IMG/VR virus record: IMGVR_UViG_3300028394_000041
Location: 32,001 to 96,000 of that record
DNA: 64,000 nt
Direction: 5' to 3' (one strand)
Origin: a virus
Below the pieces are notes generated by a model that did no database searches, was not told the DNA's origin, and worked only from the letters and a program-made list of their open reading frames with translations. A program made the position numbers and the translations under genes. Positions within the stretch are counted from its first letter, which is position 1, and each line of letters begins with the position of its first letter. This document shows, in pieces, positions 1,046 to 34,148 of this stretch.

Positions 1046-1124
1046 TTTTTCGTTTAACTTTTTTTTATTTTTCTTTATTTATTTTTAAAAACACTGTAAT
1101 ATAGAGCAATCACTACTCTATAAA

Positions 1125-3371
1125 ATGAACGTTAAAAAAAGAAACAACACTACTGAAAAATTTGATATAGAAAAAATTAACAAGGTAATTAATTGGGCTA
1201 TAGATGGATACAGCGGAGTAAGTTTAACAGACATAGAAATTAACGCTAAGATTAATATAACTGATGGAGTTCATACAAAAGAGATTCATAGTTTATTAAT
1301 TGAAAGTGCAGCAAATTTAATCTCCATAGAAAAACCAAACTATCAATATGTTGCAGCTAGGCTTCTTAATTATCAATTAAGAAAAGATGTTTGGAAGGGT
1401 AAACATGCTCCAAGACTTTCTGAATTTATAAATAATGGTTTAAAGAATAAAATCTATGACCCAATTATCTTAGAAAAATACACAGAAGATGAAATAAACA
1501 AACTAGGCGAAATTATAGATCACGAAAGAGACTTTATCTTTACCTATGCTGGTATAAAACAATTATGTGATAAATATTTAATAAAAAATAGAACTACTCA
1601 ACAGATTTATGAAACTCCACAATTTGCATATATATTAATTTCTGCATATGCATTTATTAATTATCCTACTGAAACTAGGTTGTCTTACGTTAGAAAATTT
1701 TACGATGCTATTAGTAAGCATAAGATAAATTTACCAACTCCAATCATGGCAGGAGTAAGAACTTCTAGTAAAAATTATGCAAGTTGTTGTTTAATTGGAG
1801 TAGACGATACAAGAGAAAGTATAACTGCTAGTGCTACTGCGGTTAGTATGGCTACAGCTAATAGATGTGGTATTGGAATTGATGTTAGCAAGATTAGAGC
1901 AATTGGCGCACCAATCAAAAACGGAGAAGTCGTTCATACTGGTTTAATTCCATTCTTAAAAATTTATGAGAGTAGCGTGAAAGCTTGGCAACAAAATGGT
2001 TTAAGAGGTGGAAGTGCTACTTGTAATATACAATGGTGGCATTATGAAATTGAAGATATTATTGTATTGAAAAATAACGCTGGAACAGATGATAATCGTG
2101 TTCGTAAACTTGATTATACAGTTGGGATGAGTAAATTATTTTATGATAGAGTTTTGAAAGACGAAGACGTAGTACTATTTAATACTGTTGAAGTACCAGA
2201 ACTTTATCAAGCTTGGGGAACAAAAGACTTTGATAAGATTTATAAAGAGTGTGAATCTAAAAAATTAAAAATTAAAAAGAAGATATCTGCCAGAAAATTA
2301 TTCTCTTTAATTATTAAAGAAAGAGTCGAAACTGGAAGAATTTATATTTTAAATGTAGATCATGCTAATAATCATGGCGCATGGTCTGATAAAGTCACCA
2401 TGAGTAATCTTTGCACAGAAGTCATCCATCCTACAATCCCACTTAACGATTACCATGATAAAGATGCAGAAATTGGTATGTGTATCCTTTCGGCTGTTAA
2501 TATGCTAGAAATAAAAAATTGGCAAGATTTAGAAAAAGTTTGTGATTTGATCGTAAGATTCCTTGAAGAAATTATAGATATTCAAGACTACTTTAATACT
2601 GCTGCTGAAAATTTTGCTAAAAAACGTAGAAGCCTTGGAGTTGGAATTACCAATCTCGCAGCTTTTCTTGCTAAAAATGAATTAAAATATAATTCAGATA
2701 AATCTCTTCCAGCAATAGATGAATGGATGGAACATTTTCAGTATTATCTTTTGAAAAGCAGTTGCCAGTTAGCTAAAGAAAAAGGCAAATGCGAAAAGTT
2801 TGAAAACACAAAATACTCTAAAGGTATCCTACCAATAGATACATATAAAGATAAAGTAGATGAATTAGTTAAAAGAAAACTGTCACTTGATTGGGAAAAG
2901 CTGAGAAAAGATATCAAAGAATTTGGCTTAAGGCATTCCACATTATCTTCTTGTATGCCTTGCGAGAGTAGTTCTGTAATTCAATCATCCACAAATGGAG
3001 TTGAACCTATTCGTAGTCTTATCACTTATAAAACCAGCAAAATGGGCAAGCTTCCAGTTATGGTTCCAGGAATTGGAAAGTATGATCATAATTATGAATT
3101 AGCTTTTGATTTTAAAGATAATTTAGGTTTATTGAAAATTAACGCAGTGATTCAAAAATATATTGATATGGCTATTTCTACTAATGTATACTATAATTAT
3201 AGTCATTATGATAACCATATATTACCAGATAGCAAAGTTATGAAAGAGATAATGTATGCTTATAGCCTTGGATTAATTAGTTTGTATTATAATAATACAG
3301 ACGATGGTGATAAAGAGCAGTCTATGACACAGAAAGAAGATGACTGCGCTAGTGGAGCTTGCAAATTATGA
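1125..3371 (+). CDS. nrdA: Ribonucleotide reductase class Ia alpha subunit with N-terminal ATP cone
   Basis: ATP cone MNVKKRN..EKFDIEKI, PTPIMAG, SCC, catalytic NLCTE, PCESSS, LYY, C-terminal CASGACKL. Confidence 0.97.
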   Translation: MNVKKRNNTTEKFDIEKINKVINWAIDGYSGVSLTDIEINAKINITDGVHTKEIHSLLIESAANLISIEKPNYQYVAARLLNYQLRKDVWKGKHAPRLSEFINNGLKNKIYDPIILEKYTEDEINKLGEIIDHERDFIFTYAGIKQLCDKYLIKNRTTQQIYETPQFAYILISAYAFINYPTETRLSYVRKFYDAISKHKINLPTPIMAGVRTSSKNYASCCLIGVDDTRESITASATAVSMATANRCGIGIDVSKIRAIGAPIKNGEVVHTGLIPFLKIYESSVKAWQQNGLRGGSATCNIQWWHYEIEDIIVLKNNAGTDDNRVRKLDYTVGMSKLFYDRVLKDEDVVLFNTVEVPELYQAWGTKDFDKIYKECESKKLKIKKKISARKLFSLIIKERVETGRIYILNVDHANNHGAWSDKVTMSNLCTEVIHPTIPLNDYHDKDAEIGMCILSAVNMLEIKNWQDLEKVCDLIVRFLEEIIDIQDYFNTAAENFAKKRRSLGVGITNLAAFLAKNELKYNSDKSLPAIDEWMEHFQYYLLKSSCQLAKEKGKCEKFENTKYSKGILPIDTYKDKVDELVKRKLSLDWEKLRKDIKEFGLRHSTLSSCMPCESSSVIQSSTNGVEPIRSLITYKTSKMGKLPVMVPGIGKYDHNYELAFDFKDNLGLLKINAVIQKYIDMAISTNVYYNYSHYDNHILPDSKVMKEIMYAYSLGLISLYYNNTDDGDKEQSMTQKEDDCASGACKL

Positions 3372-4459: not shown

Positions 4460-4789
4460 GTGAATTTAGATATTACAATTATATTTAATTTGGTCTTAGG
4501 AGCACTTTCTTTTCTAGGAGGATGGCTATTTACTAGAGTATTTTCTCTTTTTGATAAACAAGAGAACTTAATGAAAGATATAAACGATAAGACGTTTAGT
4601 GATTTTATTACTTTAAGAAGAGAATTAGAAGTCGAATCTAGAAAACATCAGCAAGAGTTAGCGGATTTAGCATTAAAAGTTAGCACAACATACATGACCA
4701 AAGAATCTTTTGAAGTCTATTTTGATAGAATTGAAGCTAAGTTAGATCGTAATTTTGATATAGTACAAAGTCATTTAAATAAAAAATAA
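4460..4789 (+). CDS. Small membrane protein (N-terminal TM helix plus coiled coil); holin-like possibility
   Basis: Hydrophobic IIFNLVLGALSFLGGWLF followed by a charged coiled-coil segment. Confidence 0.55.
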   Translation: MNLDITIIFNLVLGALSFLGGWLFTRVFSLFDKQENLMKDINDKTFSDFITLRRELEVESRKHQQELADLALKVSTTYMTKESFEVYFDRIEAKLDRNFDIVQSHLNKK

Positions 4790-4807: not shown

Positions 4808-5458
4808 TTAACGATTAAAATATTTTTTCATATCATTATAACACCATGAAAGCATTAAGCTTTCTTTTGTTTTTAAATTTTCACTATAAACTTTATGAAG
4901 ATATTCTATTTCATCTATAGTTTTTCTATATAAAGTCGGCCAAATATCAAAAAAGATAGTATCAAATTTTTCTTTTAGCTCTCTATAATATGTAAAAGCA
5001 TCACCATGTACGATTGAGACTTTATTATGGATGTCTCTTTCTTTTATATACGGAGATATTAATTCAATTAACTCTTTATCGAGTTCTACTATTTTTATAG
5101 AATTTACAGTAGGATCATCTAGTAATGGAAATATAACTATACCTAATCCTAAACCAAAATTCAAAATGTCTCCATAAGATTGATCTAAAAAATCTTTACA
5201 TGAAACAATCTCACTAGCATGACTAGACATCATTGTTCCGTACTCTTTATGTACTAAAGCTATATAATCTTTTCCAATATCTTGTTCACTTTCTTTTCTA
5301 TATATCCAATGAAGAGGATATAAATCTTTATCTTTAGGATCTTCTTTTGGTGTCCAATAATCATGGTCTTTTTTTCCCCAAGTAGCTTTTATTAATTTAA
5401 AATTCTTAATTTCAGCATTTGAAGGATATATATTATTTATATCTATTACTTCTCTCAT
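4808..5458 (-). CDS. Class I SAM-dependent methyltransferase (spermidine-synthase-like fold)
   Basis: ILNFGLGLG (motif I), IKIVELDKELI, IVHGDAF, FDTIFFDIW. Confidence 0.75.
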   Translation of the reverse strand: MREVIDINNIYPSNAEIKNFKLIKATWGKKDHDYWTPKEDPKDKDLYPLHWIYRKESEQDIGKDYIALVHKEYGTMMSSHASEIVSCKDFLDQSYGDILNFGLGLGIVIFPLLDDPTVNSIKIVELDKELIELISPYIKERDIHNKVSIVHGDAFTYYRELKEKFDTIFFDIWPTLYRKTIDEIEYLHKVYSENLKTKESLMLSWCYNDMKKYFNR

Positions 5459-5560
5459 AATATTAACTTTTCTTTGATATCCAAAAGGGCTTTACCTCCA
5501 TATGAAATATATTATATGAAGTTTTTATTTATCAATCCAACTTTTCTTTTGACTCCAAAT

Positions 5561-5776
5561 TTTACCGCTATCTCAGCAGTAAACGGGCCATCGCACTTAC
5601 GGATCAGAGGTAGCTTCGATCACTACATTCTGCGATGCCTATAGCTACATTCCCTTTATTAGCCATATAATGTACATATAAAGGTTTTAATAGTTGTCAG
5701 CCCTTATGACATTGCTATCTCAAGGGATTGATAGTTGATTGTTTGACATCAACAAACTGCTCTAATTGGGAACTAT
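5561..5776 (-). ncRNA. Unidentified structured non-coding RNA (~215 nt)
   Basis: GC-enriched ORF-free interval with several helices, a GCAA tetraloop and G-U pairs that favour the minus strand. Sits directly downstream of a sigma70-like promoter. Confidence 0.65.
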
Positions 5777-5784
5777 GTTGATTT

Positions 5785-5813
5785 ATATTACGATATTTTT
5801 GTCATTTTGTCAA
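5785..5813 (-). promoter_or_regulatory. sigma70-type promoter for the structured RNA
   Basis: Minus strand TTGACA (5813-5808), 17-nt spacer, TAATAT (5790-5785). The first RNA helix begins 8 nt downstream. Confidence 0.7.
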
Positions 5814-5835
5814 ATTTTATTGATAATAAATAGAA

Positions 5836-6045
5836 ATGGAAATTATAAAAAATAAAGCCAGATGGATTGTTTACTCAAGTAAATGTGCAAAATATTATAA
5901 TATATATGATGAGAATGTTTATGACCTACCAAATGAATATCCATGCATCGCTATCCCTCAAATAATTTCAGATATTAACGGCAAAAGAATTAAATTTAAT
6001 TTTATTTACAAAAAAGATTGTCAAAAATTATTAAAAAATGTATAA
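5836..6045 (+). CDS. Hypothetical protein
   Basis: 69-aa ATG ORF filling the gap between the two RNA genes. Confidence 0.55.
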   Translation: MEIIKNKARWIVYSSKCAKYYNIYDENVYDLPNEYPCIAIPQIISDINGKRIKFNFIYKKDCQKLLKNV

Positions 6046-6046
6046 T
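6018..6046 (+). promoter_or_regulatory. sigma70-type promoter for tmRNA
   Basis: TTGTCA (6018-6023), N17, TATAAT (6041-6046), about 30 nt upstream of the mature tmRNA 5' end. Confidence 0.65.
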
Positions 6047-6076
6047 ATATTTATCGTAAGATAGTTCTTTCTCATT

Positions 6077-6462
6077 GGGCGCGTAATGGTTTCGATTTTA
6101 AAAAATGGAATTAAAATGCAAGTAGAGGTTAAAACGGGTCTCTTTAAAAAGTTTTAATTATATTAACTGCCAAAACAGCAAAATATAAAGGTCATCTTTC
6201 AGCAAGAGTTTCTCTTGTTGAAGAGGCCGCTTCTGTAGCTTAAGTTACAGCGTGATACCCTTGATGCATCTATTGGGATATTGCGTAATTAGATGTCTTA
6301 TTATTAATAGTTTGTTTATCCTATTTATATTGAGTATTAAAGATAAAATCGCCTTAGCGTACTTGTTGTTTATAGGCATAAGGTTAAAAACAGAAACAAC
6401 TAAACTTGTAGTATTTTGATCGCCTTATTTAAAAGACGAGAGTTCGATTCTCTCCGCGTCCA
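6077..6462 (+). ncRNA. ssrA: tmRNA (transfer-messenger RNA), tag ORF 6169-6243
   Basis: 5' GGGCGCGTAATGGTTTCGA and 3' GACGAGAGTTCGATTCTCTCCGCGTCCA. These form a 7-bp Ala acceptor stem with G3-U70, a T-arm and discriminator A. TTAACT-GCC resume context; tag AKTAKYKGHLSARVSLVEEAASVA*; stop codon in the loop of hairpin CTGTAGC-TTAA-GTTACAG. CCA is not encoded. Confidence 0.95.
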
Positions 6463-6490
6463 ATTTTAAAGATTTTTACTTAATTTTTAT

Positions 6491-31570: not shown

Positions 31571-34148
31571 TAATTATTCTGATACCAAAGAGTTTTCTGA
31601 TAGCTTTGAAACAATAGAACTAGATATTCATGGAGTTAGATTACCTGAGTTTGAAATTGATTTAGCCTCTAAAAGGCATTTAGGAATAAGTGAAGATTCA
31701 TCAAATTATGAATTTTTAAGAGGTTTAGCATTAAATGGATTTAAAACTTTAAATATAAATAAAACCGATAAGGATTATAAGAAATATGTTGATAGAGCAA
31801 AGCATGAATTAGATACGCTAAAAGAACTAGGGTTCATTGATTACATATTATTAGTATGGGACGTTATCCATTTCTGTAAAACTAGTGATATTCCAGTAGG
31901 TTTAGGTAGAGGTTCAGCTGCTGGATCTTTGATATTATACTTGGTGGGAGTTACTAGAATTGATCCAGTCAAATATGACCTCTATTTCGAAAGATTTATA
32001 TCCAAGATTCGTGCTAAAAAGCAGGTTATTGATGGGGTAACGTATCTAGATGGTAGTTTGATGTGTGACGTAGATTTAGATATTTGTTATTATAATCGTC
32101 AAAAAGTACTCCAATATCTAGAGAATAAATTCAAAGGTAAGACTAGTAAGATATTAACCTTTAATAGCTTAAGTGGAAAATTACTTATTAAAGAGTGCGG
32201 TAAAATCATCGCTGAAAAACCAGAGCAAGAGATGACCATGATATCGTCTTTAATTCCTAAGACCTATGGCCAAGTTAAAGATATTTCAGAAGCCTACAAA
32301 GAAGTTGAGCAGTTTAAAGATTGGTGCGATCAAAACAAAGAAGCATATCAAATTGCTCTTAAGTTAAGAGATTTAATTAAGAATAAAGGAGTTCATCCTT
32401 CTGGCGTATTACTTTCTTATTATGATCTAGAAACTATATGTCCAACAGAATTTTCTTCAGATAAAGAAGTAGTATCTAGTTTTGATATGAACTGGGCAAG
32501 CGTTTTTAATATAAAATTAGATATCCTTGGTCTAAGAAGCGTTTCTGTAGTCGATAATGTCTGTAAGAGTATTAATATAAAAATAGAAGATATTGATTTA
32601 AATCATGAATCTATTTATAGAAATTTGCAAGAATTGAAATCCCCACATGGTTTATTCCAAATTGAAGCAGAAACTAATTTTAGAGTATGCCAAAAAGTTA
32701 AGCCAAAGAATCTAGAAGAGCTTAGTGGTGTGCTTGCTTTAGCTAGACCTGGCGCACTTCAATTCGTAGATAAATATGCTGCTCATACAAATTATCAACA
32801 ATCAGAAAGTATTCATCCGTTCTTTGATGAAATTTTAAAAGAAACTGGCGGAGTTGCTTTATATCAAGAGCAATTAATGAAAATGGCTCATAAGATTGGC
32901 TTTACTTTAGATGAAGCAGAAATCTTAAGAAGAATCGTAGGCAAAAAGAAAACTGAAGAGATCAAAGCTTGGCAACAAAAGATCGAACAAAAATGCAAAG
33001 AAAATAAAATTCCAAAAGAAGTCAGCGAAATTCTATGGAAGATTCTTGAAGATTCTGCGAACTACTCTTTTAATAAATCACATTCTATAGCTTACGCAGG
33101 ATTAGCAGCGATTACAATTTATCTTAAATTTAATTATCCTCAACAATTCTTTTTATCATTATTGAAAATGAGTAGGAATGAGCCAGACCCAATTGGAGAG
33201 ATATCTAAGATTCAAAAAGAAATGCATAATTTCGGAATCAAACTTCTTCCACCACATATTATCAAATCAGAAATGGATTTCTCAATCGAAGATAAGGATA
33301 TTAGGTTTGGTTTATTATCAATCAAGGGAATTAGTGACAAATCAATAGAAAAATTAAATAGCTTCAGAAATAAATACTCTAATAAATTTGAAATATTTGA
33401 AGCTGCGGAAGAAGCTGGTTTAAATATTGGAGCATTATCTGCATTAATTCAAGCTGGAGCACTTAGCGGTTTTAATCAATCAAGAAGCAAAATAGTACTA
33501 GAAGTTCAGCTATGGAACATGTTAACCTCTAAGGAGAAAAAGTATGCCATATCATTTGCAGATAAACTCGACTATGATCTAATTAAAATCATTAAACATC
33601 TTAATAAATTCACAGATGAGAAAAATAAAGTAGTTATTAAAGATAATAGACTGGACACTATTAAAGAAAAATATGCGCCATATTTAAGTATATATGAACA
33701 AAACAATAAAAGCGAAAGCTTCGCTAATTGGTATTACGAAAAGAAACTTCTAGGATATACTTATAATAAAAATCTAAAAGATATCTTTGCTGAAAAAAGA
33801 GAAAACCTTAAATATATATCTGATGTATTAGATGAACCAGTAAACTCTAAAGTAGCTTTAGTTGGTCAGATAGACGAAGTATTCTCTGGTATATCTAAAA
33901 ATGCAAAAAAGACAAGATATGTCAGGTTAAAGATATCAGATGAAACAAGCACGATTAGCGTATTAATATTCAATGATAACATTGAAACAAATAAGCTACT
34001 GAACGATAGGAATTTTGAAGAAGGAAATATTGTTATAGTCAAAGGCTCCAAAAGAGATGATTGTATATTTGGCGATTTAATAGCTATCCAAGATCATGAG
34101 ATTTATATGAAATTAAATGATTTAAAAAAGATAGATAAAAATAGTTGA
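31554..34148 (+). CDS. dnaE: DNA polymerase III alpha catalytic subunit lacking PHP
   Basis: GLGRGSAAGSL, FERF, CDVDLD, GVHPSG, KLDILGL, GLFQIE, ALARPG, YQEQLM, YSFNKSH, IRFGL..IKG, C-terminal OB fold. Likely ATG 31554. Confidence 0.93.
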   Translation: MKTKTNNYSDTKEFSDSFETIELDIHGVRLPEFEIDLASKRHLGISEDSSNYEFLRGLALNGFKTLNINKTDKDYKKYVDRAKHELDTLKELGFIDYILLVWDVIHFCKTSDIPVGLGRGSAAGSLILYLVGVTRIDPVKYDLYFERFISKIRAKKQVIDGVTYLDGSLMCDVDLDICYYNRQKVLQYLENKFKGKTSKILTFNSLSGKLLIKECGKIIAEKPEQEMTMISSLIPKTYGQVKDISEAYKEVEQFKDWCDQNKEAYQIALKLRDLIKNKGVHPSGVLLSYYDLETICPTEFSSDKEVVSSFDMNWASVFNIKLDILGLRSVSVVDNVCKSINIKIEDIDLNHESIYRNLQELKSPHGLFQIEAETNFRVCQKVKPKNLEELSGVLALARPGALQFVDKYAAHTNYQQSESIHPFFDEILKETGGVALYQEQLMKMAHKIGFTLDEAEILRRIVGKKKTEEIKAWQQKIEQKCKENKIPKEVSEILWKILEDSANYSFNKSHSIAYAGLAAITIYLKFNYPQQFFLSLLKMSRNEPDPIGEISKIQKEMHNFGIKLLPPHIIKSEMDFSIEDKDIRFGLLSIKGISDKSIEKLNSFRNKYSNKFEIFEAAEEAGLNIGALSALIQAGALSGFNQSRSKIVLEVQLWNMLTSKEKKYAISFADKLDYDLIKIIKHLNKFTDEKNKVVIKDNRLDTIKEKYAPYLSIYEQNNKSESFANWYYEKKLLGYTYNKNLKDIFAEKRENLKYISDVLDEPVNSKVALVGQIDEVFSGISKNAKKTRYVRLKISDETSTISVLIFNDNIETNKLLNDRNFEEGNIVIVKGSKRDDCIFGDLIAIQDHEIYMKLNDLKKIDKNS

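Follow-up and report, generated by a model that had tools for sequence, protein, structure and literature searches.

A conserved structured RNA gene with two concordant purine-rich tracts in uncultured phages

A promoter-driven RNA gene divergent from the tmRNA gene

The sequence examined here, which we refer to as the window, comprises 64,000 nucleotides of a viral genome record (IMG/VR IMGVR_UViG_3300028394_000041, positions 32,001 to 96,000). A one-piece tmRNA gene is located at positions 6077-6463 on the plus strand (112 bits), and is transcribed divergently from a conserved noncoding RNA gene located at positions 5778-5464 on the minus strand. An initial annotation, made from the window alone, had placed an RNA of about 215 nt, ending at position 5561, beside the tmRNA gene. 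The neighbor was correctly identified, but alignment of homologous loci showed that the conserved block extends about 100 nt further, to position 5464, yielding an RNA of about 315 nt that starts with ACAUAG and ends with AAGUUA. The block is sharply bounded at both edges in the 33 distinct copies of sequence group A (see below), which have a mean identity of 94% within the block, whereas the flanks diverge. Both the 5' and the 3' end were placed from this conservation and are thus predicted ends. No ORF of note covers positions 5464-5813.

The RNA gene is preceded by a sigma70-type promoter sequence on the same strand (5785..5813), consisting of TTGACA at positions 5813-5808, a 17-nt spacer and TAATAT at positions 5790-5785, which scored 10 out of 12 as a promoter-like site. 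The conserved RNA starts 7 nt past the -10 box. This promoter had been pointed out in the initial annotation, and it was recovered at every homologous locus: in each of the four sequence groups (A, B1, B2 and C), all copies are preceded by TTGACA-N17-TAnnAT, which is retained even at loci with an unrelated upstream flank. Since the RNA gene has its own conserved promoter of the sigma70 type, it is probably transcribed by the host RNA polymerase. No intrinsic terminator was predicted 3' of the RNA in the window or in the group B1 and C loci.

Homologs in viral and metagenome contigs

More than 150 copies of the RNA gene were identified in viral and metagenome contigs, and these were divided into the 4 sequence groups A, B1, B2, and C. 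A central 31-mer matched 35 viral contigs in IMG/VR exactly, and further loci were gathered with the aid of other k-mers, a neighboring protein of 109 amino acids, and degenerate patterns. With a covariance model built from the first 251 nt of the RNA, the copy in the window scored 313 bits, and the scores were 120 to 139 bits for group B1, 90 to 116 bits for group B2, and 43 to 58 bits for group C. The RNA is 280 to 320 nt long across the groups, with group C at 280 to 290 nt.

Exactly one copy was present in each of 4 phage records, one of which was judged to be 100% complete at 172 kb. The phage of the window contains siphovirus-type tail genes and has a family-level link only to uncultured relatives, and its NrdA protein shares 52% identity with the NrdA of Pelagibacter phage HTVC008M. 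BLAST searches of isolated phages in GenBank with the RNA region and a neighboring protein of 643 amino acids gave no match. The 109-amino acid protein, encoded at positions 4460-4789 on the plus strand, has a hydrophobic N-terminus and no Pfam match. Its gene follows nrdB in all related phages and was found at 63 loci with 70% to 91% identity, making it a useful marker of this phage lineage.

Genomic context of the RNA gene

In groups A and B2, the RNA gene adjoins the tmRNA gene, sometimes with a small ORF between them, and in groups B1 and C it is located elsewhere. No link between the RNA and the tmRNA other than this adjacency was found. The small ORF of the window, located between the RNA promoter and the tmRNA gene (5836-6045, plus strand), encodes 69 amino acids without a Pfam match; it is kept in most group A loci and missing where the RNA and tmRNA genes abut (L014, L015, and L021). 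It was also noted that the tag encoded by the phage tmRNA consists of 24 residues and ends with SVA (AKTAKYKGHLSARVSLVEEAASVA), and that the tag of the B2 relatives differs and ends with LIAA. No gene for SmpB was found in the 4 related phage records, so the phage tmRNA must use the SmpB protein of the host. Furthermore, related phages contain a gene for tRNA-Ser with the anticodon ACT, i.e. with A at position 34 (L003 11504-11592 and L015 8391-8479), which is accompanied by genes for tRNA-Asn and tRNA-Thr.

The next gene downstream of the RNA varies by locus in most of group A and B2, and is mostly encoded on the opposite strand, in convergent orientation. A gene of variable identity that usually converges on the RNA argues that the RNA is not a leader, and a cis-regulatory leader or riboswitch class was rejected on this ground for most group A loci, since only the RNAs of groups B1 and C precede nrdA. 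In these 2 groups, nrdA lies in the same orientation as the RNA, which precedes it by about 130 nt, and no terminator was predicted in the intervening sequence. The motif AAAAAYACUGUAAYAU is kept upstream of nrdA with or without the RNA nearby, and because it is present in the window, where the RNA is located elsewhere, we assume that nrdA has a start signal of its own. The motif AAAAAYACTGTAAYAT, located about 20 to 40 nt before the start of nrdA (1090-1110, plus strand, in the window; 2610-2630, plus strand, in L059), could serve the nrdAB operon as a phage-specific promoter or operator. Between the RNA and nrdA in groups B1 and C, there is a conserved AGTACAC motif and then a T-rich run (2540-2560 in L059; about 25 to 35 nt past the RNA in L095, L096, L107, and L055), a candidate for a 3' end signal or for a part of the nrdA leader.

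In the window, an ORF of 216 amino acids (4808-5458, minus strand) begins 6 nt past the RNA. The encoded protein gave a weak match of the spermidine synthase type (SAM methyltransferase fold), and the ORF was found in this position only in the window, L016, and L100.

Secondary structure

The initial annotation had proposed a secondary structure from the single sequence. In our hands, folding of the single sequence was only marginally more stable than that of shuffled sequences (z = -2.14 for the minus strand and -1.46 for the plus strand), so the evidence for structure is comparative. Covariation among homologs is strong, both within group A and across groups. The model was started from strictly covarying column pairs within group A, and the comparison shows 10 predicted nested helices and 2 predicted pseudoknots that are supported by compensatory changes.

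In the alignment of 33 group A sequences, 99.7% of the cells were paired, as compared with 30% to 53% for partners slid by 1 to 3 columns, and double-sided changes were observed in 15 pairs, as compared with 6.2 in shuffled alignments, none of which (0 of 500) reached 15; the helices were partly assigned from the same alignments as used for these counts. Across groups, double changes were seen in 43 of 52 pairs and 93.9% of the cells were paired (68.7% in shuffled and 31% to 49% in slid alignments), with the qualification that the alignment used here, A3, was fitted to the model and leans towards it. When strands were extracted with anchors and without optimization, cognate strands were 91% to 100% paired, as compared with 47% to 79% when strands were swapped between groups, and this included both pseudoknots.

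All helices are given here for the minus strand of the window, in the 5' to 3' direction of the RNA. The P2 hairpin GUUC/GAGC (5773-5770 / 5762-5759) has a conserved CCAAUUA loop and is 100% paired, with the variants GCUU/AAGC, GCCU/AGGC, and CCGC/GCGG in other groups. The H1 hairpin GUUGAU/AUCAAC (5753-5748 / 5739-5734) varies in length between groups; a G-C pair is replaced by A-U in L008, and all 6 pairs show double changes across groups. The long-range helix H2 consists of 9 base pairs between UAUCAAUCC (5733-5725) and GGAUUGAUA (5538-5530), with compensatory changes from A-U to G-C in L015 and L021 and from C-G to U-A in L003, and corresponds to UAUAGUCCC/GGGACUAUA and UAUUAGUUC/GAACUAAUA in other groups. 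The H3 hairpin is composed of GAUAG/CUAUU (5719-5715 / 5693-5689) and UGUC/GACA (5711-5708 / 5698-5695), separated by an internal loop (CAA/A). At 5711:5695, a UA pair is present in 19 sequences and a CG pair in 14, and the helix is AUGG/CCAU or UGGG/CCCA in other groups. The H4 hairpin CCUUU/AAAGG (5684-5680 / 5657-5653) has an inner closing pair that is CG, UA, or AU, and a variable insert that is missing in group C.

The central domain (5587..5639) is closed by H5, GGCAUCGCA/UGCGAUGGC (5639-5631 / 5595-5587), which is invariant in group A and covaries between groups (UACGGCA/UGCCGUA and GCUAACA/UGUUAG). It encloses H6, GAUCG/UGAUC (5621-5617 / 5606-5602), in which an A-U pair is replaced by G-C within group A. 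The H7 hairpin UACUGC/GCGGUA (5581-5576 / 5568-5563) contains double changes at all 6 pairs within group A, and has GNRA loops in group B2 (GCAA) and group C (GAAA). Finally, the H8 hairpin CUUCAUAU/AUAUGGAG (5521-5514 / 5503-5496), with a change from C-G to U-A in L007 and loop indels of 1, 2, and 3 nt, can be drawn in 2 registers.

Two pseudoknots connect these elements. In PK1, the strand AAGGGCU in the 9-nt loop of H3 (5705-5699) pairs with AGCCCUU (5491-5485), which is preceded by a conserved G(G/U)AAAG motif, and this pairing brings the 3' region back to the 5' domain. The forms of PK1 observed in the groups are AAGGGCU/AGCCCUU, AUAGGCU/AGCCUAU, GAAGGCU/AGCCUUC, GAAGACU/AGUCUUC, and CGGAGCU/AGCUCCG, and cognate strands were 98% paired, as compared with 74% for strands swapped between groups. 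In PK2, GUAGCU (5648-5643) pairs with AGCUAC in the loop of H6 (5615-5610), with covariation across groups (GUGGCU/AGCCAC, GUGGAU/AUCCAC, and GUAGGU/ACCUAC).

About half of the previously drawn structure had to be revised, and 4 helices were kept. The stems now called H1, H5, and H6 are supported by covariation, and so is the pairing of H7, although its proposed role as the terminal hairpin is not, since the RNA continues to position 5464. The helix AUAGUUCCC/GGGAAUGUAGCUAU, which had been suggested to close a multibranch domain, is replaced by the local P2 hairpin on one side and by PK2 on the other. A GNRA hairpin drawn as CCCUU..GAUA-GCAA-UGUC..AAGGG is contradicted by the covariation of U5711 with A5695, and its outer strands pair elsewhere, with CC pairing to GG at 5538-5537 in H2 and AAGGGCU being the loop strand of PK1. 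A local GUAG/CUAC stem and a pseudoknot between a loop and UGACA likewise gave way to covarying pairings. A further helix, P1 (ACAU/AUGU, 5778-5775 / 5650-5647), could form, but would share 2 bases with PK2 and hardly varies, and was left out of the model.

The sequence is nearly perfectly conserved, equally so at all codon positions, and the loops of H7 and H8 contain indels of 1 and 2 nt among close relatives, which excludes a protein-coding gene or small ORF. We also considered a non-stop mini-ORF following the GGAGG sequence and tagged by the adjacent tmRNA, and rejected it because neither frame nor start is kept in groups B2 and C. With a conserved promoter, variable flanking genes, a mostly convergent downstream gene, and indels that exclude coding, the RNA matches its original description as a stand-alone phage noncoding RNA.

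Two tracts that change in concert

Two unpaired, purine-rich tracts are located outside all helices on the minus strand: R1, CAAAAGAAAAGU, at positions 5551-5540, and R2, CAAAGAAAAGU, at the 3' end of the RNA at positions 5476-5466. The tracts are about 75 nt apart, and the roughly 60 nt between them consist of unique sequence. In all 58 distinct sequences tabulated, R1 has the letters of R2 plus one extra base at the second or third position. The first letter of the tracts is C in both tracts at 63 of 88 loci and U in both at the other 25, with no discordant locus, and the metagenome copies follow the same pattern. Both tracts are preceded by a triplet of the NUH type (GUC, AUC, GUU, AUU, or CUC).

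The tracts have changed in concert at least 4 times and never discordantly. The switch between C and U arose separately in L008/L025 of group A and in L152 of group B2, with the intervening sequence keeping the type of its group. Both tracts changed from U to C in L096 and from G to U in L174/L180, and in group C 4 letters have been replaced in both tracts, giving AUUGGGAAG instead of AAAGAAAAG. Part of this concordance could be explained by shared descent or by short-patch gene conversion, the tracts being only about 75 nt apart, but the constant difference of one base between R1 and R2 argues against simple homogenization.

A partner for the tracts was sought at several levels. No alignment column within the RNA covaries with the tracts, and no column of the tmRNA tracks their state. 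In the 4 phage genomes, complementary 12-mers were confined to the RNA gene itself, apart from 2 isolated matches, and in the window neither complementary motifs nor mirror motifs, as expected for triplex formation, were enriched. A pairing of R2 with positions 5756-5745 predicted by RNAalifold was rejected, as it is lost in group C and competes with H1, for which there is compensatory support. A motif resembling the tracts at positions 975-987 on the plus strand is located inside a lysine-rich ORF and was taken to be a chance occurrence. When representative genomes of bacteria and archaea were searched for the A/B type of the two-tract pattern, 4 matches were obtained, in Clostridia and an archaeal metagenome-assembled genome, none of which fitted the covariance model, and these were also attributed to chance.

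Comparison with known RNA families

The initial annotation had not recognized the RNA as RNase P RNA, SRP RNA, 6S RNA, tRNA, or a known riboswitch, and had suggested that it might represent a new class. Our searches agree with this. Among the 4,227 models of Rfam 15, which include RNase P, SRP, 6S, tmRNA, group I and II introns, GOLLD, ROOL, OLE, raiA, riboswitches, and small ribozymes, only tmRNA passed the gathering score in the window. At E<=10, only sub-threshold snoRNA and miRNA noise of 15 to 17 bits was obtained over positions 5300-6100, and groups B1, B2, and C gave no match at E<=5. Literature searches returned general catalogs of viral structured RNAs, in one case (PMC10690425) without its supplement, and cryo-EM work on ornate RNA-only assemblies of the ROOL/GOLLD kind (10.1101/2024.12.08.627333), but no description of this RNA. 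It is new relative to this literature and to Rfam, whereas the general category of large phage RNAs of unknown function has precedents.

The closest precedents are ROOL (about 580 nt) and GOLLD (about 800 nt), which are likewise promoter-driven, noncoding, intricately folded, carried by phages and prophages, often located beside tRNA-type genes, and of unknown function when they were found. Our RNA is only 280 to 320 nt long and matches neither of them in sequence or structure, and we know of no counterpart in them of 2 long-range pseudoknots combined with twin identical single-stranded tracts. The tmRNA is also rich in pseudoknots, of similar length, and equipped with a strong promoter, and the two genes show tight linkage in groups A and B2, but the RNA lacks a tRNA-like domain and a tag frame, and neither the one-piece nor the permuted tmRNA models matched it.

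A resemblance to RNase P RNA, of a local kind only, was noted in the region P3-J3/4-P4. The bacterial P4 helix is formed between a 5'-proximal strand, GAGGAAAGUCC, and a 3'-proximal ACAGAA..GGCUUA strand, within a core that includes P1-P3, P5, and P15. Our RNA is of comparable size and has a hairpin followed by an A-rich joiner of the GGAAAG type and a long-range pseudoknot strand, and the neighboring tmRNA gene needs RNase P for its processing. However, the motif is 3'-terminal (5497-5485), its partner is a hairpin loop (5705-5699), and the other conserved regions could not be placed. RNase P RNA was rejected, since no model matched and both order and partner are wrong for P4 as judged from its consensus. 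Group I introns have a P3/P7 pseudoknot core and are flanked by exons in a host gene, and this class was rejected on the basis of the promoter 7 nt upstream, the variable flanks, the lack of an interrupted gene, and the lack of a model match.

Systems with repeated elements were also compared. Antitoxin RNAs of type III toxin-antitoxin systems, such as ToxI, consist of tandem repeats of a whole unit of 30 to 45 nt beside the gene for an endoribonuclease toxin; in our RNA only tracts of 11 to 12 nt are repeated, the neighbors vary, and no toxin was recognized among them in a search of general scope. Template RNAs of the DRT2 or retron type were rejected, as regards an enzyme encoded by the phage, because no RVT_1 match was obtained in the 4 phage records with the RNA, including the 100% complete one; a host enzyme could still serve such a template. 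By analogy, the RNA may resemble CsrB/RsmZ and 6S RNA, in which a structured body that acts in trans displays repeated identical binding sites. It differs from these in having only 2 sites, which are 11 to 12 nt long, located outside hairpin loops, and distinct from the GGA motif of CsrA sites. Nor do the group C tracts fit the ARN pattern of Hfq sites.

Discussion

We conclude that positions 5778-5464 on the minus strand almost certainly represent a real and new structured RNA gene. The best explanation for the data as a whole is that of a stand-alone gene for a pseudoknotted noncoding RNA that also serves as a scaffold with 2 sites, an account to which we would give slightly less than an even chance. 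According to this proposal, the folded body would present 2 identical single-stranded sites to 2 copies of the same partner, conceivably an RNA-binding protein that is dimeric or repeated, or else a single sequence in a host RNA. Its action would thus be in trans, as a decoy, a sponge, or the core of a ribonucleoprotein, rather than as a leader or messenger. The scaffold mechanism is in itself tentative, and we regard it as possible but doubtful. We consider it unlikely that the RNA belongs to a new class of phage RNAs, catalytic or ribonucleoprotein in nature, with a pseudoknotted core acting on or through both tracts. It might for example capture a host factor for translation or RNA quality control alongside the phage tmRNA, or cut itself at both tracts, and if so, the mechanism would be one without a described counterpart.

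Processing at the tracts, by a single nuclease or by a catalytic core of the RNA, would account for identical single-stranded sites that flank a defined segment and whose identity has been kept through independent double changes, as well as for the NUH-type triplet before each tract and for a compact pseudoknotted body of the size of a large ribozyme. It would release a piece of about 75 to 85 nt, containing the 3' strand of H2, H8, and the PK1 strand, or make the RNA an inhibitor of a host RNase, either as a decoy substrate or in the manner of an antitoxin. Yet no known family of self-cleaving ribozymes matches, the tracts do not covary with any internal guide sequence, and the RNA has no linked gene for a nuclease. 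Since the segment between the tracts is held by H2 and PK1, its release would dismantle the structure. We judge processing to be improbable. More doubtful still is that the RNA might assemble into an RNA-only multimer, by analogy with ROOL and GOLLD, with which it shares a phage-borne, promoter-driven, and ornate character and a place beside tRNA or tmRNA genes. The conserved hairpin loops (CCAAUUA in P2, GNRA in H7 of groups B2 and C) could then, with the tracts, form contacts between copies, but the RNA is smaller than ROOL and GOLLD, no self-complementary kissing loop was found, and pairing between identical purine tracts is not possible.

It is very unlikely that the RNA is a riboswitch-like cis leader of nrdA in groups B1 and C and of the gene with the methyltransferase fold in the window. 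The spacing and strand relative to nrdA would suit such a role, as would the ORF that starts 6 nt after the RNA in the window and L016 and the GGAGG sequence within the 3' strand of H8, but the next gene is convergent and variable at most loci of groups A and B2, the motif upstream of nrdA is kept irrespective of the RNA, and no riboswitch family matches. The observation that identity itself is conserved rather than any particular sequence, so that 2 coordinated changes suffice and no third partner is needed, fits a template on which a polymerase jumps between the tracts, as in rolling-circle reverse transcription of the DRT2 kind, and polypurine tracts might also serve as nuclease-resistant primers. 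We give this little credence: no reverse transcriptase domain was detected in the 4 phage records, the unit length varies by 1 to 3 nt, the intervening segment forms part of the base-paired fold, and the constant offset of one base means that a jump would land out of register. Least probable of all, and barely credible, is the possibility that the models failed to detect a known family because of divergence or rearrangement, for example RNase P RNA, a group I intron, or part of a tmRNA. The hairpin, the G(G/U)AAAG motif, and the pseudoknot strand (GAGGGAAAGUCUUC in group B2) do resemble the P3-J3/4-P4 region, the tmRNA gene is adjacent, and group I introns are frequent in phage nrd genes. Against this stand the absence of matches in any of the 4 groups to the Rfam models at E<=10 or E<=5, the order and context of the RNase P-like motif, which is at the 3' end and has its partner near the 5' end, and a promoter of its own without exons.

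To our knowledge, large, conserved, and pseudoknotted RNAs are rare, and almost all of those known, among them RNase P, tmRNA, introns, and riboswitches, act as central machines or as sensors. The remaining large structured RNAs, such as OLE, GOLLD, and ROOL, are unsolved puzzles. The RNA described here is abundant in uncultured phages, and its covariation is unusually clean for a family found only in metagenomes. It also offers a testable clue, namely 2 single-stranded tracts that are forced to remain identical. Once known, the partner of these tracts would indicate how a large phage benefits from having such an RNA in its early region, together with genes for tmRNA and ribonucleotide reductase.
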